The notes beneath the pieces were generated by a model, which did not search any database, had not been told where the DNA came from, and worked only from the letters and a program-made list of their open reading frames with translations. Positions 1,100 through 61,257 of a stretch of 64,000 bases of DNA are shown here, in pieces. This DNA is from Chloroflexia bacterium (GTDB lineage Bacteria > Chloroflexota > Chloroflexia > QHBQ01 > JADMIH01): assembly GCA_036399775.1 (NCBI GenBank), contig DASWMJ010000096.1:69665-133664 (forward strand), given 5' to 3'. How positions within the stretch are numbered: position 1 is the first letter of the stretch; each line of letters begins with the position of its first letter. The position numbers and the translations under genes are program-made.

Positions 1100-1197
1100 A
1101 ACGTGAAACGTAATTATTGAACCACAAAGGCACGAAGAGCACAAAGTTCGCTAAGGTTTTTGTGTGGGCTTGCGATTTACGTTTCACGTTTCACGTT

Positions 1198-1569
1198 TCA
1201 CGTTTTACGTCTTACTTCCTCATCTTCGGCTCGCCAGGCGGGGTCTACTATGCAGAGGAACTTGAGGTCTGTCGCGCCGGTGTTTTGGATGTGCTGGGTG
1301 GCTTGGGGTGGGACGTAGATGGCGCAGCCCGCGCGGATGTCCGCTGTTTCTCCGTTGACGTGCATGACCCCTACGCCTTCCAGGATGTAATAGGCTTCGG
1401 AACCGGCAAGCCTATGTGGGAGGGAGCTTTCGCCGGGTCTGACGTAGGCGTGGGCCAGGCTGTAACGCATCTCTACGCTGTCGTTGGCGGGGTGCAACAC
1501 TTCTCGGAGGTTCGTGCCGTCTCCGGCTACGAATTCTTCGCACTCGTCCAGGGCTTTGGTTATCATCAT
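1198..1569 (-). CDS. cupin domain protein
   Basis: 123 aa with conserved cupin beta-barrel motifs (G-x5-HxH...E...G, YYILEG). Its stop abuts the aminotransferase gene. Confidence 0.55.
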   Translation of the reverse strand: MMITKALDECEEFVAGDGTNLREVLHPANDSVEMRYSLAHAYVRPGESSLPHRLAGSEAYYILEGVGVMHVNGETADIRAGCAIYVPPQATQHIQNTGATDLKFLCIVDPAWRAEDEEVRRKT

Positions 1570-1570
1570 T

Positions 1571-2764
1571 TCAAGCCTGATATATCTCCATCGCCCCGGC
1601 CAGGCCAGCGCCAGCCTCGATGCTATGACCTTGCGCCTTGAGGATTTGCTCTAGCGCGGCGAGTAGTTGCAGCACGAACTCCTGCTGCGAGCCGTAGCCC
1701 ATCAGCCCCACGCGCAGGAGTTTGCCCTTTAGCGGGCCGAGTCCGCCGCCTACCTCTATACCGTGCTCATTCAGCAAGGCTGTTCTTATGGCGGCTTCGT
1801 CAAGGCTGCCGGGCAATTTGACGGCGTTGAGCGGCCACAGGCTGATTTCCTCGTCCGGTAGAAAGTCCAGACCCAGGCCCTCTATGCCTGCCCGGAAGGC
1901 GCGATGGTTGAGATGGTGTCTATGCCATCTCTCCTCCAAACCTTCTTCGTGGAGCAGGCGCAGGGCGGTGTGCAGGGAGTAGATGAGCGGCGCTGAGATG
2001 GTGTGATGGTACTGGCGCTCATCCCAGTACTTCGACAGCAAGACGGCATCGAGGTAGAAGGTTTGCAGAGGGGTATTCCGGCGGCTCGCTTTCTCTAATG
2101 CCCGGTCGTTCATTGTGAATGGCGCGAGGCCGGAGGGCGCGCCCAGGCACTTCTGGCTGCCACTATAGCAAACGTCTATGCCCCACTCGTCCACGCGCAA
2201 GGGATGGCCCCCAAGCGAGGTAACGGCATCTACCAACATGAGAGCGTCCACCTCATGCGCCGCCCGGACGATCTCCGTCAGGTCCTGGCACACCCCCGTA
2301 GAGGTCTCGGCATGCACAGCGCACACCACGCGCGGGCGCGCATGCCTTATCGCGTCGCGCATTTGCTGTGGGTCAAGCGCGGTGCCCCACTCGGCGTCAA
2401 CTCGCGTCAGCCTCCCTCCCAGGCGCTGCACTATCTGGCACATGCGGTCGCCGAAATAGCCCGCGACCCCAACAACCACGCCATCCCCCGCCTCGATGCT
2501 GTTCGCAAGGGCGGCTTCCATACCCGAAGTGCCCGTGCCGGAGAGCGCCAGCGTAAGCCTATTCTTCGTCTGAAACACGCCCCGCAACATATCCTGTAGC
2601 TCCCCCATCATCGCCAGCAACGCGGGGTCAAGATGTCCCAACGGCGGCAGCGCCAGCGAAGCAAGCACCTCCGGGTCAACCTCGCTAGGCCCCGGCCCCA
2701 GCAGGAGCCGCTTCGGAGGTCGCGTCGGGGCGACGGCACTAGCAGACGTATTCTCAATTGCCAT
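1571..2764 (-). CDS. class V aminotransferase, alanine-glyoxylate/serine-pyruvate aminotransferase type
   Basis: 397 aa, LLGPGPS N-terminus and SGSQKCLGAPSG PLP-lysine region typical of AGXT/SPT. Sits immediately downstream of glcF. Confidence 0.8.
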   Translation of the reverse strand: MAIENTSASAVAPTRPPKRLLLGPGPSEVDPEVLASLALPPLGHLDPALLAMMGELQDMLRGVFQTKNRLTLALSGTGTSGMEAALANSIEAGDGVVVGVAGYFGDRMCQIVQRLGGRLTRVDAEWGTALDPQQMRDAIRHARPRVVCAVHAETSTGVCQDLTEIVRAAHEVDALMLVDAVTSLGGHPLRVDEWGIDVCYSGSQKCLGAPSGLAPFTMNDRALEKASRRNTPLQTFYLDAVLLSKYWDERQYHHTISAPLIYSLHTALRLLHEEGLEERWHRHHLNHRAFRAGIEGLGLDFLPDEEISLWPLNAVKLPGSLDEAAIRTALLNEHGIEVGGGLGPLKGKLLRVGLMGYGSQQEFVLQLLAALEQILKAQGHSIEAGAGLAGAMEIYQA

Positions 2765-2779
2765 GCGTTACCTCCTTAC

Positions 2780-2903
2780 GAGGGATCAGGGGTCAGGGAT
2801 CAGGGATCAGGGGTCAGGTGATGAGTACTGGGTGTTGGAAGTTGGACGTTGGACATCAAGGCCTATTAAGGCTGATCCCTGACCCCTGACCCCTGATCCC
2901 TCG
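2780..2903. repeat. palindromic heptamer-repeat element (GGGTCAG/GGATCAG)n ... (CTGACCC/CTGATCC)n
   Basis: Five tandem 7-mers, a 55-bp core containing (GTTGGAN)n, then the reverse-complement 7-mers. Intergenic between the aminotransferase and glcF, extending into the glcF 3' end. Confidence 0.7.
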
Positions 2904-4424
2904 TATAGACATATCGAGTATTTCGACGGGGTGCAGCACCTTAAGCGTGTGGCCCAGTCGGCTGGCGGTGCTTTGGATTTGGAGCGTGCAGCCTGGGTTG
3001 GCGCTGGCTACTATCTGCGCGCCTGTGCTCAGGATGTGGCGGGTTTTGCGCTCACCAAGCTCGGAGGCAGGCTTTGGCTCTACGAGGTTGTATATGCCCG
3101 CGCTGCCGCAACATATGTCGCCCTCCGGGATAGGCACCAGTTCAACGCCCGGTATGCTTTCCAGCAGGCGGCGAGGCTGGCGGCGCACACCCTGGGCATG
3201 CGCGAGGTGGCAGGCGTCATGGTATGCGATCTTCGCCTTTAGCGGCTTGCGAGGGGCGACAGGACCTAGCTCGTCCAGTAATTCGGTAACGTCCCTTACT
3301 CGCTCTGAAAACCGGACGGCGCGCTCTGCGAACTGCGGGTCGTCACGTAAAAGGTAGCCGTATTCTTTCATGCTGGAACCGCAGCCCGCCGCGTTGACCG
3401 CTATATAGTCCAGTTTGCATTGCTCGAAAGTGCGGATAAGCTCGCGGGCGTACCTCCTGGCGTCTTCCTCCAGTCCCGCATGTAGAGCGAGTGCCCCGCA
3501 ACACCCCTGTGTAGGTGGATCATACACTTCGCACCCCTCCGCCGCCAACACTCGTATCGTGGCCGCGTTCACTTGCGAGAAAAATACGCGCTGCACGCAG
3601 CCGGTGAGCAGGCCAACCCGCGCCCGCCGCTTGCCTCTCGCGGGCATAAATACAGGTATGCGCCGCCTCAACCCTTTCAGCGTCACCGGCGGCATCAAAG
3701 CGTGGAGGCTCGCCAGCCTGGGCGGCAGCTTCGCTAGCAAACCCGTGCGCGTCACCAGACTTTGCATACCGCTCCTCTGGTAAAGCAGCAGGGGCAGGGC
3801 AAGGAGGCGAAGGCGCGCAGGGTGGGGGAAGAGCGCGAAGAGCATCGCGCGGAAAAGCCGGTCGGAGCGCGTGCGTGGGTAGCGTCGCTCGATCTGCTGG
3901 CGAGTAGACTCTATCAGCTTATTGTACTGCACCCCCGAAGGGCAGGCAGTGATGCAGGCCATACACCCCAGGCATTGGTCGAAGTGGCGCACGTAGGTAT
4001 CGGTCATGGCAACCTTGCCCTCGTTGCCCACCTTCATCAGGTGTATGCGCCCGCGCGGCGAGTCCATCTCCTCTCCCCACAGGACATAGGTGGGGCAGGT
4101 GGGCAGGCAGAAGCCGCAATGCACGCAATCGTCTATCAACGCCGGCGACGGGGGATTGTGTGCGTCGAATGCGGAATGCGGAGTGCGGAATGTGGAGTGT
4201 TGGGAGTTGGAGGCTAAGCGGAGTAGAAGATTGTCCTCGGAGCTGTGTATGGCTTCGGCGGCTGAGGTTTCTGTTGCTGCCCCTATATCCTGGGGGCCGC
4301 TCAGCACGCTCGTTTCGCCCGCAGCTTCAGCGGCTGCGTGCATGTGTGCGGGCAGGCCACCCATCTCTCGCTCATAAGTGGGGGAGGCTTCCTGTTGCTG
4401 CTCTTTGTCTCGCGCTTGCTCCAT
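2856..4424 (-). CDS. glcF: glycolate oxidase iron-sulfur subunit GlcF, with an unusually long low-complexity N-terminal extension
   Basis: Two CxxCxxCxxxCP ferredoxin motifs (CVHCGFCLPTCPTY, CLGCMACITACPSG) plus C-terminal CCG domains. Lies 10 bp downstream of the glcE stop. About 95 residues precede the first Cys motif, versus about 25 in E. coli GlcF. Part of that extension is encoded by (GAATGCG)n heptamer repeats, and the C-terminal residues RGIRGQGSGISLNRP are encoded by (GGGTCAG/GGATCAG)n repeats. Confidence 0.8.
   Translation of the reverse strand: MEQARDKEQQQEASPTYEREMGGLPAHMHAAAEAAGETSVLSGPQDIGAATETSAAEAIHSSEDNLLLRLASNSQHSTFRTPHSAFDAHNPPSPALIDDCVHCGFCLPTCPTYVLWGEEMDSPRGRIHLMKVGNEGKVAMTDTYVRHFDQCLGCMACITACPSGVQYNKLIESTRQQIERRYPRTRSDRLFRAMLFALFPHPARLRLLALPLLLYQRSGMQSLVTRTGLLAKLPPRLASLHALMPPVTLKGLRRRIPVFMPARGKRRARVGLLTGCVQRVFFSQVNAATIRVLAAEGCEVYDPPTQGCCGALALHAGLEEDARRYARELIRTFEQCKLDYIAVNAAGCGSSMKEYGYLLRDDPQFAERAVRFSERVRDVTELLDELGPVAPRKPLKAKIAYHDACHLAHAQGVRRQPRRLLESIPGVELVPIPEGDICCGSAGIYNLVEPKPASELGERKTRHILSTGAQIVASANPGCTLQIQSTASRLGHTLKVLHPVEILDMSIRGIRGQGSGISLNRP
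4167..4212. repeat. (GAATGCG)n-derived heptamer array inside the glcF coding sequence
   Basis: Six to seven degenerate 7-mers (GAATGCG GAATGCG GAGTGCG GAATGTG GAGTGTT GGGAGTT) lying in-frame in the N-terminal extension of GlcF. Confidence 0.65.
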
Positions 4425-7949: not shown

Positions 7950-8028
7950 CCAGGGGTCAGGGGCTAGGGGTCAGGGGTTAGGGATCAGGGGTTAGGTAAT
8001 TTACTGATCCCTGACCCCTGATCCCTCA
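7950..8028. repeat. palindromic heptamer-repeat element (GGGGTCA/GGGGCTA/GGGATCA)n
   Basis: Tandem 7-mers and inverted partner between glcD and the MBL hydrolase gene. Confidence 0.7.
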
Positions 8029-8891: not shown

Positions 8892-9033
8892 TGAAACGTA
8901 AAACGTGGTGCGTATTGCGTAGTACGTATTGCGTAAAACTCCAAATAACCTCTGCGTTTCTATTCATATATCTTAGTGTTCTTTGTGTCTCTGTGGTTCA
9001 ATGATTACGCAATACGCAATACGCAATACGTTT
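8892..9033. repeat. (CGTATTG)n-armed MITE-like element, copy 1
   Basis: Inverted (CGTATTG)n / (CAATACG)n arms around the conserved core CTCTGCGGTTCAAT...CTTAGTGTTCTTTGTGTCTTTGTGGTTCAA. Copies also at 30714-30857 and 36452-36616. Confidence 0.65.
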
Positions 9034-10049: not shown

Positions 10050-10179
10050 TGCCCAGCGACTGAAGTCGCGGGCAACGATTACAAAGTCGCCCTGCGGCGA
10101 CTACTCTATCCCTCATAGTCCGCGTAGGCGGACTTCGTTTTCGTTGCCCGCGACTTCAGTCGCTGGGCAACATTCGCCC

Positions 10180-11241
10180 TTATGATAGATTCACCTCGAA
10201 TTGTCCTATTGCTTCACCATCAGGCAGCACGCCAAACTCTATACGGTAGTGTATCTCTTCGCCTGGGGCCATGTGCTTCAGGCGGCCCTCTTCGCGCAGG
10301 CGCTTGCGCGGGGTCTCCCACTGGTTGGCGGGTTCCAGGGCGCACACGTAGTCGCCCGCCGACATCTGCTTCCACTGGGCGAGGTAAGGCAGTTCAGCCG
10401 CCCTGTAGCGTATATAGGCCCCGAACTGCAAGTCGCGGTTGACGATGGCAGCCTGCGCGAAGCCGTTGCTGCTCACGCGTGGCTTGTGGAAGAAGACCTG
10501 CTCGGCGTAGTTGGGTACGGGCTGGTCGAACCTCGTATGATTATCAAATCCGCTCCTGGCAGCTTCGTCCCTGGGGTTCACTAGCTCGTCGTCCACAACC
10601 AGCTCCGACGACGGGCTTACGACGGGGAAACCGAAGTTGCAATGGTAGAGGATCATATGCGGCGTCTCGCGGTATCCGTCGTTGCGCACGGTATCCTCTA
10701 TCACGAGGCTGCTCGCGCCCAGCCTGGTAGATATTCTGCGGGTGAGGAGCAAGTTCTCGCCCCCCAGCATCGCCTGCCTCGCCTGGCCTTCTATCTCAAG
10801 CACGTAGTCATCGCCGCGCCATTCCTCCGTCACGCAGACTTTGCCCGCAGGTATGTGGGCGATGCGACCGTGCAGGCCGAGGTGCTCCCCCTGGTCCTCC
10901 TCCGGGTGGCCGAAGAAGGTAAGGCCGCACGTAGTGACAAGCCCCCCGCCGAAGGTGCGCGCCCAGCCATAACCTTGCGGCTCGTACTGGCCCGCCCCGC
11001 CCAGCGCCGGGTGGACCCACGCGAGAGGCTTTCCGGCGTACTCCGCCGCGCCCACGTCCATAGCGCGGTCCAGCAGCACCTGGAAGCGGAACCCACTGCC
11101 GGTGTACACATCCGCCACCCGCAGCCCGCGTGCCTTGCCGTCCGCAAGCTCCGACACGCGGATGCCTGCTATCTGCGCCATCGTGCTCGTCAGCGTGCGC
11201 AATTCTTCTATCGAATAGTCAGTTCCGAATAGCTGTGGCAT
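10180..11241 (-). CDS. aldose-epimerase-like / DUF4432-type protein (tentative)
   Basis: 353 aa beta-rich protein in sugar catabolic context. The family assignment rests on recall only. Confidence 0.4.
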   Translation of the reverse strand: MPQLFGTDYSIEELRTLTSTMAQIAGIRVSELADGKARGLRVADVYTGSGFRFQVLLDRAMDVGAAEYAGKPLAWVHPALGGAGQYEPQGYGWARTFGGGLVTTCGLTFFGHPEEDQGEHLGLHGRIAHIPAGKVCVTEEWRGDDYVLEIEGQARQAMLGGENLLLTRRISTRLGASSLVIEDTVRNDGYRETPHMILYHCNFGFPVVSPSSELVVDDELVNPRDEAARSGFDNHTRFDQPVPNYAEQVFFHKPRVSSNGFAQAAIVNRDLQFGAYIRYRAAELPYLAQWKQMSAGDYVCALEPANQWETPRKRLREEGRLKHMAPGEEIHYRIEFGVLPDGEAIGQFEVNLS

Positions 11242-11820: not shown

Positions 11821-12404
11821 TATGGGACATAGCCCAACCTGGCTTCCAGGCTGGCTTTGACCTGGGGCCATTCTTCGTCTGTGATGCTGAACATTACGCT
11901 GTCGCGGAAAGTGCCGTCGGGGAGAATTATTTGCTTCCGCAAAGTGCCCTCGCGTATCGCGCCCAGCTTTTCCATAGCTCTCTGGCTCTGCAAGTTGCGC
12001 CTGTCCGTTTTTAGTTGCACCCTTATTGCTCCCAGCGTCTCGAAGGCGTGGCGCAGCATGAGGTACTTGCACTCCGGGTTCACCTGTGTGCCCTGGTACG
12101 GCCTTGCGATCCAGGTGTAGCCTATTTCAAGGCCGCGATGCTCCGGGCGGATGTCGAAGTAAGATGACGTGCCTATGGGCTGTCCTGTTTCCTTAAGTAT
12201 CATAGTGAATGGGACCCGCCCGGGCATATCCAGGTTACGTTGAACGTACGCCCTGAAGGCTTCAAGGGTCGTATCCTCAAGCACTACGGTCGTATATTTG
12301 AAGATGACCGGCTCCGCCACCCGCCATAGGCCCTCTGCGTGGCTCATGCTCAGCGGCTCAAGACGCAGAGTGCGCCCCTCTATTGTCACAGGTTCTACTC
12401 GCAT
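11820..12404 (-). CDS. GNAT family N-acetyltransferase (RimL-like)
   Basis: 194 aa with typical GNAT fold motifs. Tandem with the previous GNAT. Confidence 0.7.
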   Translation of the reverse strand: MRVEPVTIEGRTLRLEPLSMSHAEGLWRVAEPVIFKYTTVVLEDTTLEAFRAYVQRNLDMPGRVPFTMILKETGQPIGTSSYFDIRPEHRGLEIGYTWIARPYQGTQVNPECKYLMLRHAFETLGAIRVQLKTDRRNLQSQRAMEKLGAIREGTLRKQIILPDGTFRDSVMFSITDEEWPQVKASLEARLGYVP

Positions 12405-12457
12405 AACGTCATATCTATAACAAAGTCGGAATGCTTGGGGTTCAGCAACCCCTGTAC

Positions 12458-12746
12458 CCTTGTCATTCTGAGCGCAGCGAAGAATCTCGTCCCTAGCTCA
12501 TCCTTTTGCCTCAGTCTCTCCCCTTGCGTCCCCAGCATAATACGCGAGGGACGAGATTCTTCGCTTCGCTCAGTACAGCACTAACAAAGAAATGTCTGCG
12601 TAGGGGCGACCCGGTGGGTCGCCCGGGTGGGGATGGCGAACCAACTTTACGCGTGACCCTGGCAGGGCGACCCACCGGGTCGCCCCTACCTTACACATTT
12701 TATTCCTGGACATAACTTTGTTAGTGCTGTACTCAGAATGACAGGG
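12458..12746. mobile_element. triple-nested MITE-like insertion
   Basis: Outer element with 37-bp TIRs (CCTTGTCATTCTGAGCGNAGCGAAGAATCTCGTCCCT). Its right TIR is interrupted after CGCTCAG by an element with TIR TACAGCACTAACAAAG flanked by a 5-bp duplication CTCAG. That element in turn carries an 88-bp GTAGGGGCGACCCGGTGGGTCGCCC...CGCCCCTAC palindromic element (12601-12688). Confidence 0.7.
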
Positions 12747-47810: not shown

Positions 47811-47811
47811 A

Positions 47812-49102: not shown

Positions 49103-50425
49103 ATGACAACCCCGGATACTTTTCCTCCCGACTTTGCCTGGGGCGCTGCCACGGCGGCTTACCAGATCGAGGGCGCGTTCAACGAGGACGGCAGGGGAGA
49201 GTCGATATGGGACCGCTTCAGCCATACGCCGGGTAAGGTGAAGAACGGCGATACCGGCGACGTGGCATGCGACCATTACCACCGCTACCGCGAAGACATA
49301 GCCTTGATGAAGCAGATCGGCCTCAAGGCATATCGCTTTTCGACTTCCTGGCCCAGGGTCCTCCCAAACGGGCGGGGTCCCGCCAATCGCTTAGGGCTGG
49401 ATTTCTATGATAGGCTAGTGGACCAATTGCTGGAGGCGAATATCCAGCCATTCCTGACCCTGTACCACTGGGACCTGCCCCAGGCGCTGCAAGACAAGGG
49501 CGGGTGGGCCAACCGCGACACCTGCGGCTATTTCGCCGATTACGCCACGCTCATGGCCCGGCGTTTCGGCGATCGTGTGAACTACTGGACTACCTTCAAT
49601 GAGCCGTGGGTTGTTGCGTGGGTCGGCAATTACCAGGGTGAGCACGCTCCAGGCTTCACCGATATAAAGCTGGCGATGCACGCAACTCACCATCTGCTGG
49701 TCGCGCACGGGCTGGCAACGCAAGCGATCCGCACGATAGCCCCACAGGTCAACTTTGGTATCGTGCTCGATTTCGCGCCCCCGGAGCCTGCCGAAGAGAC
49801 CGAGGACAACCATGCCGCCGCAGAGTCAATCTGGCAGCGAGGTGGCGCGCTCTTCTTAGACCCACTTTTCCGGGGGCACTATCCGCCCACCGTCCAGCCG
49901 TTTGTCGAAGAATGCGAGGTGCCCGTGCAACCGGGCGACCACGCTCTCATCGCGCAACCTCTCGACTATGTCGGCGTCAACTTCTACCGGCGCATAGTGT
50001 TTGACGAGCAAGGCAACCCGGCCCGCGTTCCGGGCGCTGAGTATACCGAAATGGACTGGGAAGTCCACGCACCCGCTTTCAAGCGCCTGCTGCTTCGCCT
50101 GTCCAGCGAGTACCGCCTACCGCCCATCTACATTACCGAGAACGGGGCTGCGTTCGCGGATGAAGTCGGCAGGGATGGAGAGGTCCATGATGAGCGCCGC
50201 CTGAATTATATCCGGGAGCATCTTGGTGCCGTGCATGAAGCCATGTCGGAAGGCGCGGACGTACGCGGCTATTTTGCCTGGTCGCTGCTCGATAACTTTG
50301 AATGGGCAGAGGGCTATTCCAAGCGCTTCGGCCTCGTCTACGTTGACTACCCGACGCAAAAGCGCATCATCAAGGACAGCGGGAAATGGTACGCGCAGGT
50401 CATCGCGCAAAACCGGCTATTTTAG
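49103..50425 (+). CDS. GH1 beta-glucosidase
   Basis: FAWGAATAAYQIEGA N-terminal signature, TFNEPW acid/base and ITENGAAF nucleophile motifs, 440 aa. Confidence 0.9.
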   Translation: MTTPDTFPPDFAWGAATAAYQIEGAFNEDGRGESIWDRFSHTPGKVKNGDTGDVACDHYHRYREDIALMKQIGLKAYRFSTSWPRVLPNGRGPANRLGLDFYDRLVDQLLEANIQPFLTLYHWDLPQALQDKGGWANRDTCGYFADYATLMARRFGDRVNYWTTFNEPWVVAWVGNYQGEHAPGFTDIKLAMHATHHLLVAHGLATQAIRTIAPQVNFGIVLDFAPPEPAEETEDNHAAAESIWQRGGALFLDPLFRGHYPPTVQPFVEECEVPVQPGDHALIAQPLDYVGVNFYRRIVFDEQGNPARVPGAEYTEMDWEVHAPAFKRLLLRLSSEYRLPPIYITENGAAFADEVGRDGEVHDERRLNYIREHLGAVHEAMSEGADVRGYFAWSLLDNFEWAEGYSKRFGLVYVDYPTQKRIIKDSGKWYAQVIAQNRLF

Positions 50426-50478
50426 ATTGAATAGTTGGCTCCGAAATCTAAAATCTAAAATCACTTTGAGGTAATCTG

Positions 50479-51549
50479 ATGGACAGTCGGGGCCAACGGC
50501 GCGACCTGCTGGTAGGAGTGGACGTAGGCGGGACCAAGGTCGCCGTGCTGGTGGTTGACGGCGGCTACAACGTGCTCAGCCAGATCATGCTACCGACCGT
50601 CCTAGGCAGTTCCCAGGCCACGCTAACCTCCATCACAGGGGCTGTGCAGCAAGGCGTCGAGCAGGCGGGAGCAAGTCTGGATTGCGTAGCGGCGGTGGGC
50701 CTCGGCGTTCCGGGGAGAGTAGACACCGCAACGGGGCTTGTACGCCGCGCCGTGAACCTGGGTTGGGAAGAGCTGCCCTTCGGCCAACTCCTCTCGGCTC
50801 AGCTTGGCGTGCCATGCGTGCTCGAAAACGATGTGACGCTGGCTGCTATAGGCGCACAGCATTATATGGGCATAAGCGAAGCGAGGGGTGCCAGCCGCAA
50901 TATGGCCTATGTAAGCGTGGGCACGGGTATCGCCGCAGGGCTTGTGCTCGATGGCCGCACCTATCGAGGCGCGCACGGTATGGCAGGTGAGATCGGCCAC
51001 ATGATAATCGCCCCCGGTGGGCCTCGCTGCCAGTGTGGCGCGCACGGCTGCCTGGAAGCGGTAGCGGCAGGCCCCGCGATTGCGCGCCTGGGAGAGGAAG
51101 CTGCTTTGTCCCCCGGCGATACGCTGTTGCGCCTGTACAGGCCCGTAACCGCCGAGGCCGTGTACCAGGCAGCGAGAGATGGGGACGCTGCCGCTACTAC
51201 CATCATCCGCAAGGTAAGTGGGCACCTCGCGCTGGCTCTTCAGCAGCTTATCGTAGCCTACGACGTGGAATGCATCGTATTTGGCGGCGGTGTCTCGCGT
51301 GAGGGAGATACGTTCCTTCAGCCCATACTTGCAGAGCTAGCGCACCTGCGTGAGCAATCCGTACTGACCGGCGAGATGCTGCAACCGGACATGATTCGCG
51401 TCTTGCCGTCCGACTACGATGCGGGCGCATGGGGAGCGGTGCTGCTGGCGGCTGAAAGTACAGCACGCATCTCTCCAAAGTATAGACATGTTACCCTCCC
51501 CGACGGGGTTACAGGGGGTGCCCCCGGTAAATTCTCAGAGACGGGGTAA
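50479..51549 (+). CDS. ROK family sugar kinase (no HTH; glucokinase/GlcNAc kinase-like)
   Basis: DVGGTKV ATP motif and CQCGAHGCLE zinc motif. Lacks an N-terminal DNA-binding domain. Confidence 0.75.
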   Translation: MDSRGQRRDLLVGVDVGGTKVAVLVVDGGYNVLSQIMLPTVLGSSQATLTSITGAVQQGVEQAGASLDCVAAVGLGVPGRVDTATGLVRRAVNLGWEELPFGQLLSAQLGVPCVLENDVTLAAIGAQHYMGISEARGASRNMAYVSVGTGIAAGLVLDGRTYRGAHGMAGEIGHMIIAPGGPRCQCGAHGCLEAVAAGPAIARLGEEAALSPGDTLLRLYRPVTAEAVYQAARDGDAAATTIIRKVSGHLALALQQLIVAYDVECIVFGGGVSREGDTFLQPILAELAHLREQSVLTGEMLQPDMIRVLPSDYDAGAWGAVLLAAESTARISPKYRHVTLPDGVTGGAPGKFSETG

Positions 51550-51558
51550 AGCCAACGG

Positions 51559-51648
51559 TAGGGGCGACCCGGTGGGGCGCCCAGGGGGGGGTGGCGGATC
51601 ATGCGTGCCGGCGACCTCAGACAGGGCGACCCACCGGGTCGCCCCTAC
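51559..51648. repeat. GTAGGGGCGACCC...GGGTCGCCCCTAC palindromic MITE-like element
   Basis: Lies between the ROK kinase gene and nagZ. Same 25-bp terminal inverted repeats. Confidence 0.6.
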
Positions 51649-51692
51649 CGGAAACATATTCTTCTTCCTTCAATCTATAAATAGGAGAAATA

Positions 51693-53297
51693 ATGGGTAA
51701 TTCCGCATTCCGCATTCCGCATTCCGCAATTACTCTTGAGCAAGCCGTCGGCCAGAAGTTGCTGGCGGCCTTCCAGGGTTACCATGTACCCGACGGGTTG
51801 GTGGATTTGCTGAAGCATACGCAGATCGGCGGGGTAACTCTGTTCCGCTCGTTGAACGTGCAGAACCCCGCACAAGTACGCGACCTGACTAACGCTTTGC
51901 AAACAGCAGCGGCGACAGCCGGGCAGCCTCCACTTCTGATTTGCGCGGACCAGGAGGGCGGCCAGTTGTTGGCTATGGCAGGCACTACCCCTTTCCCTGG
52001 CAACATGGCGCTGGGGGCTACGCGCTCGCCGGAGCTTGCCCACCGCACCGGATTCGCGATTGGGCGGGAGCTTGCGGCTATGGGAATAAATGTCAATTAT
52101 GCGCCGGTGTGCGATGTGAACGTCAACCCGCAAAACCCGGTAATAGGTACCCGTTCTTTCGGTGAAGACCCTGCCGAGGTGGGGCGGCTTGGCGCGGCAA
52201 TGATCGAGGGGCTGCAAGCGGCGGGCGTGGCAGCAACGGCCAAGCACTTCCCCGGACATGGAGACACGGCCACCGACTCGCACTACGCCACGCCCGTGCT
52301 ACCCTTCGATGAAGAGCGTTTGCGCCGGGTCGAACTACCCCCGTTCAGCAGCGCGATTGAGGCGGGCGTCAAGCTGATGATGACCGCGCATATAGCCCTG
52401 CCGGGCCTCACCGGGGGCCTCGAAGTGCCTGCCACCCTTTCTCCCGCGATCATGAGGAAGCTTTTGCGAGACGATCTTGGCTTTCGTGGGGTAGTGGTTA
52501 GCGACGCGATGGATATGGGTGCCATCGAAAGGGGGCTGGGCCTCGCGATAGACTGTATAGCTGCATCGGCGGCAGGGGTTGACTTGCTGTTGCTCGCCGA
52601 CTGTGGCGAGGGCTTCCAGGCCGTGTACTCTGCCGTGCTACAAGCAGCCAGGAGAGGTCTACTTGAACCCGGCGAAATGATGGCATCGGCCCACAGAGTG
52701 CTAGAGCTGAAGGCATGGCTCAACAAGCACGAACAACCAGGATTAGAAGTAGTAAACTGCGAAGAGCATCGCGCCCTGGCCTACGAGATAGCCGCCCAAT
52801 CGGTTACCCTGCTGCGCGATACGCAGGGGTGCTTACCTTTGAGTCTCCCAGCTGAAGCACGGATAGCCCTGGTCCTGCCTCGCCCATCGGATCTCACGCC
52901 CGCCGACACTTCTTCATACGATAAGCCGGTGTTGGCAGAGATGCTGCGCCGGTACCATCCCGCCGTAGACCAAATAGATGTGCCCACCAACCCCGGTTCG
53001 TCCGATATTGGCGCGGTGTTGCAACAGGTAAAGGACTACGACCTCGTAATAGTGGGTACCATCAACGCCTTCCAGCACGAAGGGCAGGCCGCCCTGGTCA
53101 ATATGCTGCTGGAGGCAGGCAGCAAGTTAATAGCGGTGGCCCTCCGTATGCCTTATGACCTGTCGGCCTATCCGGGCGCGCCCACATATATTTGCACCTA
53201 TAACCTTCAGCCGCCGTCTATGGAAGCCCTGGCCGACGCTTTGTGGGGGCGGATTCCTTTCGTGGGGCGATCACCCGTTATGGTGGCGGGTGCCTGA
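51693..53297 (+). CDS. nagZ: GH3 family beta-N-acetylhexosaminidase (NagZ-like)
   Basis: AGGAG RBS. GH3 N-domain motifs (KHFPGHGDTATDSH, DQEGG). The first residues (NSAFRIPHSA) are encoded by a (CGCATTC)n heptamer repeat. Confidence 0.8.
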   Translation: MGNSAFRIPHSAITLEQAVGQKLLAAFQGYHVPDGLVDLLKHTQIGGVTLFRSLNVQNPAQVRDLTNALQTAAATAGQPPLLICADQEGGQLLAMAGTTPFPGNMALGATRSPELAHRTGFAIGRELAAMGINVNYAPVCDVNVNPQNPVIGTRSFGEDPAEVGRLGAAMIEGLQAAGVAATAKHFPGHGDTATDSHYATPVLPFDEERLRRVELPPFSSAIEAGVKLMMTAHIALPGLTGGLEVPATLSPAIMRKLLRDDLGFRGVVVSDAMDMGAIERGLGLAIDCIAASAAGVDLLLLADCGEGFQAVYSAVLQAARRGLLEPGEMMASAHRVLELKAWLNKHEQPGLEVVNCEEHRALAYEIAAQSVTLLRDTQGCLPLSLPAEARIALVLPRPSDLTPADTSSYDKPVLAEMLRRYHPAVDQIDVPTNPGSSDIGAVLQQVKDYDLVIVGTINAFQHEGQAALVNMLLEAGSKLIAVALRMPYDLSAYPGAPTYICTYNLQPPSMEALADALWGRIPFVGRSPVMVAGA

Positions 53298-53309
53298 GGT
53301 AGAGCACTG

Positions 53310-54467
53310 ATGCTCTATATCGAGCCTGCGGCCATTGTAACACCCGAAGGCTTGCTGGAAGATCGCGCGGTGCTTGTGGATGGCGAGCGCATCGTTGCCG
53401 TTGACTATGCCTCCCGGCTGCCATGTCCGGCGGGGGCGCGCAAACGGGAAGCGGCGGGCCTATCGCTGGCTCCCGGCTTTATCGACCTTCAGATAAATGG
53501 GGCCTTCGGTAGCGATTTCACCAACGAGCCGGGCGCTATCTGGCAAGCAGCCGCCCTACTGCCCAGGTATGGCGTCACGTCATTTCTGCCGACGATTATT
53601 AGCTCGCCGCGTGAGAGGGTGGAGATAGCCCAGGCTGTCATATGTGAGGGCCAGCCTCCAGGCTTCAGGGGTGCAACTCCGCTTGGGCTTCACCTTGAAG
53701 GGCCATTCCTCAACCCGGCAAAGCGCGGCGCGCACAACCCGGCGCACCTACGCCTGCCCGATACGGCGGAGGCTCAAGGCTGGACCCCGGATAGAGGTAT
53801 CCGTTTTGTAACGCTGGCTCCTGAGCTACCCGGCGCACTTGGGATGATCGAAATGCTGGCAGCGCGAGGCATAGTAGTCAGCGAGGGCCATTCCCTGGCT
53901 AATTATGAGGAGGGCATCGCCGGTATCAATGCGGGCATCAGATATGGCACCCACCTGTTCAACGCTATGCCCGTACTGGACCACCGGGAACCGGGGCTGG
54001 TGGGTGCGCTGCTTGGCGATGGCCGGGTAACTGTTGGGCTTATAGCCGACGGCATCCACCTGCACCCCAGCATGGTAGCGCTGGCCTGGAAAGCTAAAGG
54101 CCCCTCTCGGTTAAGCCTGGTGACGGATGCAATGGCGGCACTCGGCATGTCAGATGGCATCTATAAACTGGCGGACCAGGACGTGATTGTAGCGGGTGAG
54201 GCGGCCCGCCTGGCAGACGGCAGGTTGGCGGGAAGCGTGCTGACCCTGGACCAGGCTGTGCGCAACCTGATCAGTTTTGCAGGTTGTAGTCCATGCGATG
54301 CCATCTCCACCGTAACTACCGTACCTGCATCGCTACTTGGAATGGCGGACTCGCGAAGCCAGATCGCCCCAGGCTCCCGCGCCGACATGGTATTGCTGGA
54401 CGGCGGTCTGCGCGTTGTGGAGACGCTGGTCGCCGGAGAGGTCGTTTATTCAACACGGGCCGATTAA
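53310..54467 (+). CDS. nagA: N-acetylglucosamine-6-phosphate deacetylase
   Basis: GFIDLQINGAFG metal-binding motif and amidohydrolase fold signatures, 385 aa. Confidence 0.85.
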   Translation: MLYIEPAAIVTPEGLLEDRAVLVDGERIVAVDYASRLPCPAGARKREAAGLSLAPGFIDLQINGAFGSDFTNEPGAIWQAAALLPRYGVTSFLPTIISSPRERVEIAQAVICEGQPPGFRGATPLGLHLEGPFLNPAKRGAHNPAHLRLPDTAEAQGWTPDRGIRFVTLAPELPGALGMIEMLAARGIVVSEGHSLANYEEGIAGINAGIRYGTHLFNAMPVLDHREPGLVGALLGDGRVTVGLIADGIHLHPSMVALAWKAKGPSRLSLVTDAMAALGMSDGIYKLADQDVIVAGEAARLADGRLAGSVLTLDQAVRNLISFAGCSPCDAISTVTTVPASLLGMADSRSQIAPGSRADMVLLDGGLRVVETLVAGEVVYSTRAD

Positions 54468-54512
54468 GAAGTAGGCAGGCTGAGCAAGGCAGAAACAGGG
54501 AAAGGAGAAGGC

Positions 54513-55553
54513 GTGGCACTCAGAGACGAGATATTAGAGCAGCCGGGTGTCTTGCGTGGCTGGATAGAGACGCAGATGCAAACGGCGTCCGGTATAGCCG
54601 AGGCTATCCTTTCGCGCGACGTGCAATACATCTTCCTGGCGGCGAGGGGTAGCTCAGACCACGCAGGAGTGTACGCGCAGTACCTTTTTAGCGCGCGGAA
54701 TCGCCTGGCGGTAGCCCTGGCAACGCCGTCGCTGTTTACGATGTACCCTCAGTCGCCCCGGCTGCACAACTCGCTCGTGATCGGCATATCGCAGTCCGGC
54801 CAGTCTCCCGATATAGTGAGTGTTATCGCCGAAGGAAGACGACAGGGCGCTATTACCCTGGCTATCACCAACGACTCTGACTCTCCGTTGGCGCGGGCCG
54901 CCGAGCTTACCCTGGGGTTACACACAGGGCCGGAGAAAGCCGTGGCCGCCACCAAGACTTACACCGCACAGCTGTTGGCGCTGGGTGCGCTCTCTGTTGC
55001 CCTGGCGGGAAACAAAGAAGCTGACTTGGCTGACCTGGCCGGGGTGCCTGACGCAGTACAATCGGCGCTGGAACTGGAGCCGGAAGCCGAGCGAATCGCC
55101 GGAAGACACGCTTTAATGGATCACTGTGTGGTGCTGGGGCGCGGTTACAACTATGCCACGGCCCAGGAATGGGCGTTGAAGCTCAAGGAGCTTGCATACG
55201 TATTTACGGATGTTTACTCTACGGCAGATTTCCGGCACGGGCCGATAGCGATAGTCGAGCCGGGTTTCCCGGTGCTGGCCGTAGCTCCGCAAGGGGCGGT
55301 CCTGGCGGACCAGTTAGCCTTATTCTCAAGGCTGCGCGACGACTACAAGGCTAAACTGGTAATCATCTCGGACAGCGACCAGGCGCTGTCCCTGGGGGCT
55401 GAGAAGTTACGCCTGCCACCTGGGCTGTCCGAGTGGCTGACCCCAATCGTTAGCATCGTCCCGGCCCAGTTGTTCTGCTACCATCTCACCCGCGCTAAGG
55501 GTTACGATACCGAGAACCCTCGCATGCTGCACAAGATAACTCTGACCGAATAG
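54513..55553 (+). CDS. SIS-domain sugar isomerase, GlmS-like glucosamine-6-phosphate deaminase (NagB-II/AgaS type)
   Basis: Two SIS domains (GISQSGQSPD, second SIS with SDSD). GTG start after an AAAGGAGA RBS. Position after nagA. Confidence 0.7.
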   Translation: MALRDEILEQPGVLRGWIETQMQTASGIAEAILSRDVQYIFLAARGSSDHAGVYAQYLFSARNRLAVALATPSLFTMYPQSPRLHNSLVIGISQSGQSPDIVSVIAEGRRQGAITLAITNDSDSPLARAAELTLGLHTGPEKAVAATKTYTAQLLALGALSVALAGNKEADLADLAGVPDAVQSALELEPEAERIAGRHALMDHCVVLGRGYNYATAQEWALKLKELAYVFTDVYSTADFRHGPIAIVEPGFPVLAVAPQGAVLADQLALFSRLRDDYKAKLVIISDSDQALSLGAEKLRLPPGLSEWLTPIVSIVPAQLFCYHLTRAKGYDTENPRMLHKITLTE

Positions 55554-55624
55554 CTGCTTCAGCTTCGTTCTGTGCCTGGGTAGCTTGGTCACAACTAACA
55601 GTCGGCAGTTCTTAGCGGGCTGTA

Positions 55625-58982: not shown

Positions 58983-59014
58983 TTGCCCGGAATCGGCGGG
59001 AGGAGGATCGGGTC

Positions 59015-60088
59015 ATGCAAGTAACGCTGGGCAAGATAGCCTCGGTGACGGCGCGGGTGAGACTGCCCCACCAGGTGGAGATAGGCGATTACGTCTGCGC
59101 AGAGCGCGGCGCGGTGATAGTGGTCGAAGCTCTTGAAGAGAAGTCGGTGTACGGAGAGCTTGAGCTGCTCGGCGGCAGGATGGCTCGCATCATCAAGGGC
59201 GACGTGATGGCGGGCGTGCTGGGCGAGCGCCAGGCCCTCAAAGGTTTCGTGGGCCACATCCCTGAGCGCATAGAGCCGGGTGACACTCTCCACGTCCTGA
59301 ATATGGGTGGGGTCATAGGGCTGTGTAGCTCCGCCAACACCGATTTCGGCCAGGCGTTGCGGGTGCGCGTGCTCGGTTCGGCCATAGTTGACGGCGAACC
59401 TGCCAGCATCGCCCGCGACGCGCTCCCCTGGCGCAACTCCCTCCACAGGAGCGCGCCTATCATCCTCGTCTCCGGCACCTGCATGAACGCGGGCAAGACT
59501 ACAGCGGCGTGCGAGAGCCTACGCGTGCTGTCGAGCAGGGGGTACCGGATCGCAGCCGCCAAGCTCGCGGGCGTTGCCACTCAGCGCGACCTGCTGAATA
59601 TGCAAGATCACGGCGCGATAGCGGCGCTCTCATTCAGCGACGCGGGCCTCCCCTCCACCACCGGCACCGATAGCTGCTTGGTGCCCGCCGCCAAAGGCGT
59701 GCTGGCTGCCCTCAACGCCTCCCAGCCTGACGCCATAATCGTGGAGTTCGGCGACGGTATCATGGGGCACTACGGCGTGGATATACTCCTGCGGGACGCC
59801 GAATTGATGGGCCACGTGCGAGCGCACATCCTCTGCGCCAACGACCTTGTCGCCGCGTGGGGCGGACTGCGCTACCTCGAAGGGATGGGCGTGCGTGTAG
59901 ACTGCATATCAGGCCCGGCCACCGACAACACGGCGGGCGTAGATTACATCAACAAGCATTTCAGCATGCAAGCCGCCAACGGTCGCACGCAACCCACTCT
60001 CCTGGCCGACATGGTGGAAGCCCTGGCCTTCCCAGGCAACTCCCATTCGATGTCTGGCAGAATGATAGAAGATAGGGACGTGGCGTAA
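59015..60088 (+). CDS. P-loop protein, DUF1611-like (possible DgcN-type N-acetyltransferase), first gene of the T-box operon
   Basis: GGGAGGAGG RBS and ATG 59015. The upstream ATG of the ORF track lies inside the terminator hairpin. P-loop-like VSGTCMNAGKTT. Stop overlaps the argC start (ATGA). Family assignment from recall only. Confidence 0.45.
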   Translation: MQVTLGKIASVTARVRLPHQVEIGDYVCAERGAVIVVEALEEKSVYGELELLGGRMARIIKGDVMAGVLGERQALKGFVGHIPERIEPGDTLHVLNMGGVIGLCSSANTDFGQALRVRVLGSAIVDGEPASIARDALPWRNSLHRSAPIILVSGTCMNAGKTTAACESLRVLSSRGYRIAAAKLAGVATQRDLLNMQDHGAIAALSFSDAGLPSTTGTDSCLVPAAKGVLAALNASQPDAIIVEFGDGIMGHYGVDILLRDAELMGHVRAHILCANDLVAAWGGLRYLEGMGVRVDCISGPATDNTAGVDYINKHFSMQAANGRTQPTLLADMVEALAFPGNSHSMSGRMIEDRDVA

Positions 60089-61179
60089 TGGCTATACGGC
60101 AATTCTCCATGTCGCGGCCCGCGCGGGTAGCGGTGGTGGGCGCATCGGGGTATATCGGCGGGGAGGCGTTGCGCCTGCTGCTGGGGCACCCGTGCGTAGA
60201 AGTGGCAGCGGTAACGTCGCAGTCACATGCAGGCAAGCTCGTTGCCGAGGTACACCCACACCTGGCCCATACCACGGAACTCAACTTCGTCGGCGACCTG
60301 CCCCCGGAGGCTGCGAGCGAGTATGACGCAATCTTCCTGGCGCTGCCGCACGGCGCTGCCATGTCCCGCGTGCCGCAGATGCTGGCTCATATGGGAGAGG
60401 GCGGTCCGAGAGGCGACGGCCCGCTCATATTGGACTTGAGCGGCGACTTTCGCATTAAGGAGGAGGCGCAGTTCCAGAGATACTACGGGCTGCAACACAC
60501 GGCCTCCGAGTGGGCCGGGCGTGCGGCTTATGGCTTGACCGAATGGAACCGCGAAGCCATAAGGGAGGCGCGATTGGTGGCGTGCCCTGGCTGCTTCCCG
60601 ACCGGCTCGCTGCTGGCCCTTACGCCGCTCGCTCGCGCCGGACTGCTGACCGGGAACGTAGTGATCGACTCCAAGACAGGCTCGTCGGGTTCCGGCAAAG
60701 AGCCGGGCGAGGGCACCCATCACCCCACGCGGGCGAACGACTTCCGCGCTTATGGCCTGCTCAAGCACCGCCACTTGCCGGAAATCGTCCAGGAACTCGC
60801 TAAGTGGCATCTCCAGGACAGCGCAAGCCTTCGCGTGGTCTTCACGCCCCATTCCGCCCCGATGGTGAGGGGCATATTCACTACGGCCTACGTCTTCCCT
60901 TCGCGCCCGGTCAGCAAGGAGGAGCTACGCGATATATACGAGCAGGCTTACCAGGGCGAGTATTTCGTGCGGTTGGTGGAGTCGCCCCGCGTAGGCGTGG
61001 TAGCCCACTCCAACTTCTGCGACATAGCCGCCGTGACCGATGGCGAGGGCGCTATCATAGTAACCAGCGCCATAGACAATCTCGTAAAAGGCGGCGCGGG
61101 CCAGGGCGTGCAAAACCTCAACGTAGCATTCGACTGGCCCGAAAATCTCGGCCTAACCTTCCCAGGCACGATGCCATAA
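60088..61179 (+). CDS. argC: N-acetyl-gamma-glutamyl-phosphate reductase (ArgC/LysY type)
   Basis: VVGASGYIGGEALRLL NAD motif and catalytic-Cys region LVACPGCFPTG, 363 aa. Confidence 0.85.
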   Translation: MAIRQFSMSRPARVAVVGASGYIGGEALRLLLGHPCVEVAAVTSQSHAGKLVAEVHPHLAHTTELNFVGDLPPEAASEYDAIFLALPHGAAMSRVPQMLAHMGEGGPRGDGPLILDLSGDFRIKEEAQFQRYYGLQHTASEWAGRAAYGLTEWNREAIREARLVACPGCFPTGSLLALTPLARAGLLTGNVVIDSKTGSSGSGKEPGEGTHHPTRANDFRAYGLLKHRHLPEIVQELAKWHLQDSASLRVVFTPHSAPMVRGIFTTAYVFPSRPVSKEELRDIYEQAYQGEYFVRLVESPRVGVVAHSNFCDIAAVTDGEGAIIVTSAIDNLVKGGAGQGVQNLNVAFDWPENLGLTFPGTMP

Positions 61180-61182
61180 TAC

Positions 61183-61257
61183 CCAGAAATTAGAAGTTAG
61201 AAGTTAGAAATCAGAAGCCTAACACCTGAACCCTGACCCCTGATCCCTAACCCCTAA
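61183..61257. repeat. mixed heptamer array (AGAAGTT)n followed by (CCCTGAC/CCCTAAC)n
   Basis: Between argC and argD. An (AGAAGTT)n array also occurs at 29256-29292. Confidence 0.6.

Follow-up and report, generated by a model that had tools for sequence, protein, structure and literature searches.

Heptanucleotide repeat hairpins in operon spacers of a Chloroflexia bacterium and their association with S23p genes

Tandemly repeated heptanucleotides are found in diverse bacteria. Heptamers are over-represented among the long simple sequence repeats (SSRs) of many genomes, including those of Burkholderia and Xanthomonas, and polymerase slippage has been proposed as their source (Mrazek 2007, as summarized in PMC4679880 and PMC4692102). 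Such repeats are also present in a 64,000-nt stretch of DNA from the metagenome-assembled genome of a Chloroflexia bacterium (GenBank assembly GCA_036399775.1, contig DASWMJ010000096.1, positions 69,665 to 133,664), where many of them form the arms of hairpins in the spacers of sugar-catabolic operons. The whole stretch is referred to below as the window. One of these hairpins encloses an open reading frame (ORF) for an S23p protein, which is otherwise known from intervening sequences (IVSs) of 23S rRNA genes.

In Xanthomonas (65% GC), GGGAATC arrays are 89 to 93% intergenic and form 70 to 75 inverted pairs per genome; their length varies among related species, and their type, single or paired, is kept (Rehm 2015, PMC4692102). 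The window repeats resemble these arrays and the GGGGA(T/C)T repeats of Nostoc in their high-GC host, intergenic location (about 90% there), and position mostly between co-oriented ORFs near an ORF end. In contrast to the single G-rich family studied in Xanthomonas, which has been interpreted as a G-quadruplex former, the window contains more than 10 families, most of them without G-tracts. Further differences are that junction occupancy varies between sister species here and that no link to S23p is reported in PMC4692102. A first-pass annotation of the window considered this organization best known from heterocystous cyanobacteria and not from high-GC genomes. The first view is not supported for a class of long SSRs as widespread as the one described above, and the second is wrong, as the Xanthomonas genomes demonstrate.

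Cyanobacterial short tandemly repeated repetitive (STRR) sequences were reportedly described by Mazel in 1990; most window units presumably differ from those of STRR1 to STRR3. The Nostoc repeats TTTTGAA/TTCAAAA are located near start codons (bioRxiv 10.1101/2022.06.06.494920). The window shares with the STRR and Nostoc repeats the tandem heptamers, the presence of several families per genome, and the location near start codons and in operon spacers; the Nostoc unit TTTTGAA is the same as the window unit GAATTTT/AATTCAA by rotation. However, the host belongs to Chloroflexota, GAATTTT is the only unit equal to a Nostoc unit, and the window arrays are not STRRs in the strict sense. Systematic pairing into hairpins is not a described feature of STRRs, and few pairs were found in Nostoc by Rehm (PMC4692102). 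The TAACTGA repeats are common to Beggiatoaceae, cyanobacteria, and Bacteroidetes, and for their cross-phylum spread “no mechanism is evident” (MacGregor 2015, PMC4679880); that paper mentions neither S23p nor RNase III. Like the window repeats, they are intergenic arrays (2 to 6 units) that end beside start codons or overlap ORF ends and have a patchy cross-phylum distribution with no known vehicle. They consist of a single unit that is nearly always in direct orientation (1 inverted in 170 sets), whereas the window contains many units, about half of them in inverted pairs.

Two systems connect heptamers with RNase III. In Haemophilus influenzae, an (ATCTTTC)n array in the 5′ untranslated region upstream of hmw1A is part of the transcript, where it makes up one arm of an extended hairpin cut by RNase III; changes in repeat number require the hairpin, transcription, and RNase III (PMC12721329). 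The window elements share with it the heptamer array as an arm of a long hairpin, with transcription and RNase III cutting only presumed here. In contrast to them, hmw1A is a single phase-variable locus that is not dispersed, and its right arm is a G-rich nonrepeat sequence. The 23S rRNA IVS of Coxiella carries an S23p ORF within a 28-bp terminal stem cut by RNase III (Warrier 2016, PMC4990558). Two or three GACAGAT heptamers, variable among strains, are found at the start of the S23p region, and the 5′ cut falls at the first repeat. Among the literature searched, this is the only paper that brings together heptamer repeats, IVSs, and RNase III. The elements of the window are similar to the IVSs of Coxiella and Leptospira in having an S23p/PF05635 gene inside terminal inverted repeats with a stem of about 28 to 32 bp, heptamer repeats of variable copy number at the S23p start, and ORF-less versions; like the IVSs, which are regarded as selfish, they may be parasitic. 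They differ in lying in intercistronic mRNA spacers rather than in helix 25 or 45 of 23S rRNA, in having a stem made entirely of heptamer arrays, and in the excess of ORF-less over ORF-bearing copies (about 20 to 1), and RNase III cutting is here presumed by analogy.

Repetitive extragenic palindromic (REP) sequences, bacterial interspersed mosaic elements (BIMEs), and REPINs of proteobacteria are also intercistronic palindromes of operons, including those for sugar ABC transporters, and a REPIN consists of two inverted arms and a spacer. REP/BIME palindromes can stabilize the upstream mRNA. Unlike these, the window elements have arms that are tandem repeats of many sequences and contain no GTAG motif, and no REP-associated tyrosine transposase (RAYT) is found among the window ORFs scanned.

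Heptamer hairpins between cistrons

Period-7 arrays were scored with Tandem Repeats Finder, with a count of exact arrays, and with a mismatch-tolerant scan, using 20 shuffles as a control. In the window, period 7 accounts for 38 of the 60 Tandem Repeats Finder rows, and of the exact arrays with 3 or more copies at periods 4 to 15, all 11 have period 7. The tolerant scan finds 24 period-7 arrays at a score of ≥11 and 30 at a score of ≥9; the shuffles give 0 to 1, and the neighboring periods 5, 6, 8, and 9 give 1, 0, 0, and 0 arrays, respectively. These arrays have the features of heptanucleotide long SSRs and STRR-like repeats: a 7-nt unit in at least 3 copies, at a frequency far above that expected by chance and that of neighboring periods, and a dispersed, mostly intergenic distribution with at least 10 unit families in the window. 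All ten unit families named in the first-pass annotation are present where it had placed them. Its statement that they occupy nearly every intergenic gap is an exaggeration, as arrays are present at 17 of the 43 junctions of at least 20 nt. The window has a GC content of 58.7% and is 88% coding, yet 74% of the array bases are in the intergenic 12% of the sequence, and most of the “coding” arrays lie no more than 16 nt from the end of an ORF.

The arrays are not an assembly artifact, because a JGI contig (L161) is 99.87% identical to the window over 7086 nt with zero indels and an independent Logan assembly, from a separate run, is 100% identical over 1160 nt that span parts of two hairpins. 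The surrounding genes form sugar-catabolic operons that encode a GlcDEF-like oxidase, ABC sugar transporters, ROK regulators, and glycoside hydrolases (GHs). Genes are on the minus strand up to position 42140 and on the plus strand from position 42452, so that nearly all arrays lie in codirectional, presumably transcribed spacers. A search at the gathering threshold found no Rfam family, rRNA included, anywhere in the window.

In the sense of the operon, a typical element begins 0 to 3 nt past the upstream stop codon, ends 5 to 20 nt before the next Shine-Dalgarno (SD) sequence, and consists of a heptamer array, a loop or core, and a complementary heptamer array. The arms pair into near-perfect stems of 22 to 38 bp, with folding energies of −30 to −79 kcal/mol for full-size elements. 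At least 10 inverted pairs are present in the window, in agreement with the earlier suggestion that many arrays are paired as forward and reverse-complement arms; these are of the Xanthomonas type, i.e., convergent complementary arrays in co-oriented spacers, with stems of 22 to 48 pairs. Each of the five palindromic sites named in the first-pass annotation folds into a stem of 25 to 48 pairs, and additional palindromes are located at 1095-1215, 8895-9032, 30713-30857, 36453-36614, 19616-20048 (with an enclosed ORF), and 50418-50462. Variant units are mirrored between the arms: at 34829/34904, GAGTTTT is matched by AAAACTC, and at 49004/49054, ATTTCCG by CGGAAAT. The copy numbers of the two arms are often unequal, e.g., 7.0 and 3.9 units at 30713/30831. 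Tracts of three or more G residues are found only in the AGGGATC/AGGGGTC (GGGTCAG) family. The elements, in window coordinates, are as follows.

1095-1215, plus strand: hairpin at a convergent gene junction; arms CGTAAAA/CGTGAAA (1095-1113) and CACGTTT x5 (1179-1215); common core TTGAACCACAAAGGCACGAAGAGCAC at 1117-1142.
2781-2901, minus strand: hairpin; arm AGGGATC/AGGGGTC (2781-2818) and its complement (2872-2901), loop with GTTGGAC x3 (2834-2854); on the sense strand, the 3′ arm adjoins the SD and the 5′ arm is translated as the C-terminal tail of ORF 2856-4424; −79.4 kcal/mol for 2776-2905.
4167-4196, minus strand: single GAATGCG/GAGTGCG array in a doubtful N-terminal extension of the GlcF-like ORF; this family also flanks S23p genes in L174 and L175.
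7951-8026, minus strand: hairpin of the GGGGTCA/GGGATCA family with an 8-nt loop; on the sense strand, the C-rich 3′ arm leads into GGAG and the ATG of the GlcD-like gene.
8895-9032, minus strand: core-bearing element, copy 1; CGTATTG-type arms and a core of about 75 nt.
15017-15130, minus strand: CTCGGTA x7.3 array (15080-15130) directly after a stop codon, with a partly self-complementary unit; core-B fragment TTGAACCGCAGAGACGC at 15017-15033.
19616-20048, minus strand: S23p cassette; in sense order, ATTTTAG x4 (20018-20048), ORF 19626-20006 (126 aa), and AATCTAA x4.4 (19616-19646).
24259-25060, minus strand: UPF0261 gene with internal and terminal arrays; GTGTTGG and CACTGAC units at 24970-25060, heptamer-derived C-terminal tail and post-stop array at 24259-24330.
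26591-26631, minus strand: TACTCGG x5.9 array that supplies the final 14 codons of ORF 26590-27768; this family also flanks the S23p gene in L168/L169.
27783-27806, minus strand: single degenerate AATCTAA array in a 41-nt intercistronic gap.
29255-29287, minus strand: AGAAGTN x4.7 array, ending at the start codon of gene 27810-29255.
29585-29616, minus strand: single AATCCAA/AATCTAA array closely following the stop codon of a gene for an ABC ATPase.
30713-30857, minus strand: core-bearing element, copy 2; TTGCGTA x7.0 and AATACGC x3.9, between two ABC ATPase genes.
34829-34936, minus strand: hairpin GAATTTT x5.9/AATTCAA x4.7 with a perfect stem of about 38 bp; the unit shared by rotation with Nostoc, also the same as in the arrays flanking the S23p gene in L170.
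36453-36614, minus strand: core-bearing element, copy 3, between a ROK regulator gene and a solute-binding-protein gene.
47811-47900, plus strand: hairpin ACGAATT x4.6/AATTCGT x5.6 between two ABC permease genes; extends from the stop codon to 11 nt short of the SD; −49.7 kcal/mol for 47808-47903.
49004-49084, plus strand: hairpin ATTTTAG/AATCTAA with a perfect stem of 31 to 32 bp; arms of the S23p-cassette type, no ORF.
50418-50462, plus strand: short ORF-less hairpin TTTTAGATT ... AAATCTAAAATCTAAAATC; its right arm is identical (22/22) to the S23p cassette arm 20027-20048.
51700-51728, plus strand: ATTCCGC x4.1 array just after the annotated start of a GH3 gene; complement of the 4167 family and the same downstream arm type as that of the S23p genes in L174/L175.
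61185-61257, plus strand: two abutting arrays, AGAAGTT x4.7 and CCTAACC/CTGACCC x5.7, ending at AAAGGAG and ATG.

Some single arrays run into ORF ends and encode C-terminal tails, such as ...RGQGSGISLNRP and ...VPSTEYRVPSAE. Array-encoded tails are found on at least four proteins (ORF ends 2856, 7985, 24284, and 26590), and the arrays at 24970-25060 encode an in-frame insertion of about 30 aa (SGQWSVIDGQWSVIRGQGSG...) in the linker between the two domains of the UPF0261 protein. These translated arrays fit a process that is blind to coding sequence, its products then being filtered by selection.

Four elements (at 1090, 8876, 30698, and 36435) have a common 30-nt invariant core, TTGAACCACAAAG.CAC.AAGA.CAC, in an identical orientation relative to the upstream gene; the “short unique core” of the first-pass annotation therefore applies to some elements and not to these. 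The arms are of the CGTATTG type in three of them and of the CACGTTT type in the fourth, and are complementary in each copy, with 8 compensatory pairs changed on both sides between paralogues. The invariant core and the arm complementarity of every copy indicate that these elements are copies of one another rather than independent local expansions.

The closest genomes are those of uncultured Chloroflexota, and all relatives belong to this phylum. Locus L024 is syntenic with window positions 42381-55557 at 84% nucleotide identity, and L031 covers positions 45450-48552 at 85%. The arrays are not confined to the window: these two sister loci and the more distant L011 are equally dense in them. 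In contrast, no heptamer arrays are present in L001 (86% amino acid identity for the query protein) or in about 70 further Chloroflexota loci, and the best full-length match in a metagenome scan for closer relatives (80% amino acid identity) has few. The finding is real and is not ordinary for Chloroflexota. Even in array-poor relatives, period 7 is the commonest 5- to 9-nt array class (14 versus 0 to 4 in 430 kb).

At the permease-permease junction, an orthologous ACGAATT/AATTCGT hairpin is found in the window, L024, and L031, with different copy numbers and compensatory unit changes: in L031, ACAAATT is paired with AATTTGT, and in L024, ATGAGTT/ACGAGTT with AACTCGT. No array is present at this junction in five more distant relatives (72 to 79% nucleotide identity), which have short, unrelated spacers. 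Other junctions differ between the window and L024.

Junction 53298: 12 nt and no hairpin in the window; 72-nt GTTCAAR hairpin in L024.
Junction 54468: no hairpin in the window; hairpin with 4 + 17 units in L024.
Junction 50426: AAAATCT-type hairpin in the window; GTTCAAR hairpin in L024.
Junction 46737: ordinary 20-bp hairpin in the window; heptamer hairpin in L024.

The ordinary hairpin at the last of these junctions (46755-46798; TTTTCTCTTCTTGCGGCTTCC GAGG GGAAGCCGCAAGAAGAGAAAA) is perfect over its 20 bp, and its L024 counterpart is built of GTTCAAG heptamers; different hairpins are interchangeable at this site. The L024 hairpins belong to one dominant family, which occupies five junctions that are empty or otherwise filled in the window, and those at 15320 and 16565 have left arms identical over 32 nt. 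The dominance of a single family in L024 and the junction differences between the sister species indicate that each lineage has undergone a recent spread of its own heptamer families. A separate array in L024, CGGAAAT x5 at 11190-11227, lies just past the apparent start codon of a GH1 gene; its 35 nt are not a multiple of 3, so either the start is misassigned or the array is in the 5′ untranslated region.

S23p cassettes and their homologues

The ORF at 19626-20006 encodes a four-helix-bundle protein of the S23p (“23S rRNA intervening sequence protein”) family (PF05635, E value 8e-17; TIGR02436, 1.3e-24). Its closest solved relative is PDB entry 2RLD (E value 1.7e-16), which was deposited with five chains. 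The PF05635 domain resembles Avd, the accessory protein of diversity-generating retroelements (DGRs) (PMC10053308). The arms of the cassette (19616-20048) show 32-nt complementarity, broken by no more than 2 mismatches, and the last six residues of the protein, NLKSKI, are encoded by the array. This is the only element of the window that encodes S23p; the others have no ORF. It is not inserted in a 23S or 16S rRNA gene, as Rfam finds no rRNA in the window and the flanking genes are protein-coding operon genes.

The window cassette was compared with those of 11 homologues, namely, the orthologue in a relative and genes from metagenomic contigs, a Pyrinomonadaceae (Acidobacteriota) metagenome-assembled genome (MAG), and a Leptolyngbya (cyanobacterial) MAG; three of the 12 were chosen because their protein ends carry no repeat signal. 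All 12 cassettes, from three phyla, have period-7 arrays of 2.6 to 6.7 units on both sides of the S23p gene, with arms complementary over 21 to 38 nt that form a long terminal inverted-repeat stem around it; none has period-6 or period-8 arrays there. The cassette unit families are AAAATCY, GAACTCG, AAAATTC, GCGGATT, ACGAGAT/ACGAAAT, CGGATGT, and GCGGAAT/GCGGAGT, five of which are also window families. Array-encoded C-terminal tails, e.g., NPKSKI, are found in 97 of 120 close homologues and in 42 of 150 representatives of 50%-identity clusters. Wherever flanking operon genes are called, the S23p gene points in the same direction as they do. A tblastn search with 270 S23p proteins against 160 related Chloroflexota and metagenome loci (L001 to L160) revealed no further S23p gene.

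The cassette at 1501-1920 of L164/L165 lies within an apparent defense island (DUF1156, Uma2, and HEPN_Swt1/DUF499). There, the upstream array closest to the gene is oriented like the downstream array, with an inverted array located further upstream.

For the reciprocal comparison, 69 viral-predicted contigs (617 kb) were picked by an exact AAAATCY array. Several of them (GC 0.56 to 0.68) carry many heptamer families together, and this co-occurrence points to a property of the genome and not of a single sequence. Four IMG/VR contigs with GC of 0.60 to 0.65 (L225, L210, L177, and L244) each contain 15 to 20 period-7 arrays per 8 to 15 kb, in many families and many inverted pairs, without an S23p gene. 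They show that further genomes or prophages rich in heptamers and high in GC exist.

Other repeats and landmarks in the window

A second dispersed element consists of GC-rich palindromes of about 100 nt, GTAGGGGCGACCCGGTGGGTCGCCC...GGGCGACCCACCGGGTCGCCCCTAC (−84 kcal/mol), which are unrelated to the heptamer elements and are found at the following positions.

12600-12699: GC-rich palindrome.
42257-42356: GC-rich palindrome.
51558-51648: GC-rich palindrome, absent from the orthologous L024 junction.
63371-63471: GC-rich palindrome.
18054-18132: variant of the GC-rich palindrome.

Each arm is itself a small palindrome that begins with GTAG, and the elements look REP/REPIN-like. A comparison of window positions 51577-51613 with positions 6660-6696 of L161 shows 9 differences, the only ones in the 7086 nt, all in the center of the palindrome. 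At all 9 positions L161 has T, as do the other copies; the window has G at 7 of them, A at 1, and C at 1. Illumina-type sequence-specific errors are known from inverted GC-rich repeats, and this cluster could be such an error or a localized T/A-specific hypermutation.

A third repeat, GTCATTCTGAGCG(C/A)AGCGAAGAATCTC, is found at 12462-12488, 29363-29389, and 29457-29483, as a single copy in a 724-nt gap (12073-12796) and as an inverted pair within a 359-nt gap (29256-29614). It is also present at 151-177 of L021 and 4898-4924 of L103, both from distant Chloroflexota. The 130-nt intercistronic spacer at 10050-10179 is one almost perfect hairpin (−90 kcal/mol) with arms GCCCAGCGACTGAAGTCGCGGGCAACGA... 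and is not built of heptamers. The switch in gene strand is a 311-nt divergent gap (42141-42451), and the cumulative GC skew has its minimum near 48 to 52 kb; the gap and the minimum are a possible replication-related landmark.

Origin of the heptamer elements

The best-supported account is that the elements are IVS-like hairpins located in operon spacers instead of rRNA. It starts from what is directly observed, namely, the anatomy and placement of the elements, their dispersal in the genome, their turnover between sister species, the covariation of the arms, and the association of S23p genes with the arrays. The arrays would then be the arms of lineage-specific selfish hairpin elements related to the S23p-bearing IVSs of 23S rRNA genes, a reading to which we assign a probability of about 0.55. 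By analogy with the S23p-bearing IVS of Coxiella and with hmw1A, the stem in a polycistronic transcript would be cut by RNase III. Such cutting would make an insertion between cistrons tolerable and would uncouple the cistrons, and the half-stems left behind might alter mRNA stability or translation. Copy number would shift in 7-nt steps by slippage. Template switching within a palindrome is a known mutational route, and arm complementarity might be kept either in this way or by selection on the stem. For the copying of elements to new junctions, the Avd-like S23p is a candidate factor that would act in trans.

Several observations weigh against this reading. About half of the arrays are single and not paired. 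S23p is rare beside arrays, with 1 gene per about 30 arrays in the window, and the 69 viral-predicted contigs lack S23p genes despite their 227 period-7 arrays and 33 inverted pairs, which leads to rejection of the idea that every array belongs to a cassette. Since most arrays in the window, L001 to L160, and the viral-predicted contigs have no S23p gene, the hairpin is the primary unit, and S23p is either an occasional cargo, always in such hairpins, or a factor acting in trans; it may also be only a passenger that lives in such hairpins. The families GGGTCAG, AGAAGTT, and GTGTTGG and the L024 family GTTCAAR match none of the S23p cassettes. GGGTCAG remains unmatched because a GGGATC-type array at P0184, suggested by the N-terminal peptide, is ruled out by the DNA, which is of the GCGGATT type. 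No target-site duplication was found at junction 53298 (filled in L024, empty in the window), the one pair examined. The copy number variation across strains that the first-pass annotation had proposed to look for is not seen, as the two other assemblies of the species have no indels. Over 17 hairpins, no G·U strand asymmetry was found (sense, −719.9 kcal/mol; antisense, −721.6 kcal/mol), and because of this lack of strand bias a DNA-level palindrome, equally good on both strands, fits as well as an RNA stem. Finally, transcription, RNase III cleavage, and any fitness effect of the elements are inferred.

One alternative is plain slippage, in which, as Mrazek proposed (2007, via PMC4679880 and PMC4692102), a polymerase-specific 7-nt bias seeds and expands arrays, independently at AT-poor intergenic sites, the inverted pairs being by-products and nothing being mobile or functional. 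The prevalence of period 7 even in array-poor relatives would be explained, as would the variation of copy number between arms and species, the drift of units within arrays (e.g., ACGTAAA, ACGTGGT, and GCGTATT; also in L011), and the invasion of ORF ends and a protein linker, which is what a blind mutational process would do. However, slippage yields no reverse-complement partners with mirrored variant units. Nor does it explain why four loci have arms and a 30-nt invariant core in common, why one dominant family occupies five L024 junctions that are empty or otherwise filled in the window, and why the members of an orthologous gene family are enclosed by identical AAAATCY arms across three phyla. 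We therefore consider it unlikely as the whole explanation. The first-pass annotation's view that more than simple slippage is involved stands as far as recurring arms and core, sister-species junction differences, arm covariation, and the cross-phylum cassette are concerned. Slippage still acts on copy number, which differs between arms and between species, and so operates on top of whatever disperses the elements. A regulatory role, in which the arrays serve as platforms with a 7-nt footprint (for cold shock proteins or a pentameric S23p) or as G-quadruplex or i-motif formers that tune translation or transcription upstream of start codons, with the hairpin secondary, appears improbable to a similar degree. 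Consistent with it, arrays end at or beside an SD or start codon, like the TAACTGA repeats of Beggiatoaceae, and CspB binds one heptamer per protein (PMC4679880); GGGNATC repeats form G-quadruplex structures in vitro, heptamer repeats affect recF/recO expression in Nostoc, and the typical array of 4 to 5 units is in line with the five chains of 2RLD. Still, more than 10 unrelated units in one 64-kb window argue against a single sequence-specific binder, G-tracts are restricted to the GGGTCAG family, orthologous junctions work in the sister species with a different heptamer, an ordinary hairpin, or nothing, and the mirrored arms point to pairing as the conserved property.

Mobilization by a transposase, either of REP/REPIN elements by a RAYT of the IS200/IS605 type or of MITEs (miniature inverted-repeat transposable elements) by a DDE transposase encoded elsewhere, is less probable still, even though the two inverted arms, short spacer, and intergenic location are REPIN-like, dispersed copies have a common core, and elements are present or absent between sister species. 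The scan of 30 window ORFs detected no transposase or RAYT domain. The empty and filled forms of junction 53298, the single pair compared, show no duplication of a target site, so the elements do not qualify as MITEs, although their arms act as terminal inverted repeats. A transposase recognizes one terminal sequence, whereas the arms are tandem heptamers of many unrelated sequences. GTAG is a motif typical of REPs; it is lacking in the arms and present in the separate GC-rich elements of the window. Of all these alternatives, Rho-independent terminators or attenuators between genes are the least credible. Long stable stems do directly follow stop codons, and the element 1095-1215 is at a convergent gene junction. 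However, no T-run follows any heptamer hairpin in the window, including those at 30713, 34829, 47811, and 49004, where the SD of a codirectional gene follows 5 to 20 nt away. Terminator-like sites are not enriched in the window (21 found versus 16.9 ± 4.3 expected), and the scan flags only a substem in one arm of 36453-36614 and no full heptamer hairpin. The intrinsic-terminator reading was rejected on these grounds.

As a kind, heptamer SSRs and inverted pairs in a high-GC genome are already known. What appears to be new is the lineage, how many families coexist, the turnover from one junction to the next, and the consistent location of S23p genes in heptamer hairpins across phyla. The IVS-like hairpins could be extended to a more tentative and rather doubtful proposal, that the heptamer arrays of cyanobacteria, Xanthomonas, Beggiatoaceae, Bacteroidetes, and Chloroflexota belong to one widespread class of mobile hairpin cassettes processed by RNase III, as their termini and as derivatives lacking an ORF. 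The cargo form would encode S23p, and a pentameric S23p, facing arrays of about 4 to 5 units, might bind or propagate the arrays in trans.

Catalogues of heptamer repeats date back to 1990, yet there is no accepted account of how they arise, what they do, or how they spread, and the window is a compact and unusually clear case of them. If only the modest reading holds, it adds a new phylum to a known repeat class and corrects the notion that such repeats are not found in high-GC genomes. The placement of S23p ties together two orphan phenomena, the STRR-like repeats and the very large, Avd-related TIGR02436/PF05635 family, and the association of S23p with hairpins suggests where such repeats come from in many bacteria. 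If the single cassette class were real, it would be the vehicle still lacking for the spread of these repeats between phyla, and a very large family of orphan proteins would gain a function.

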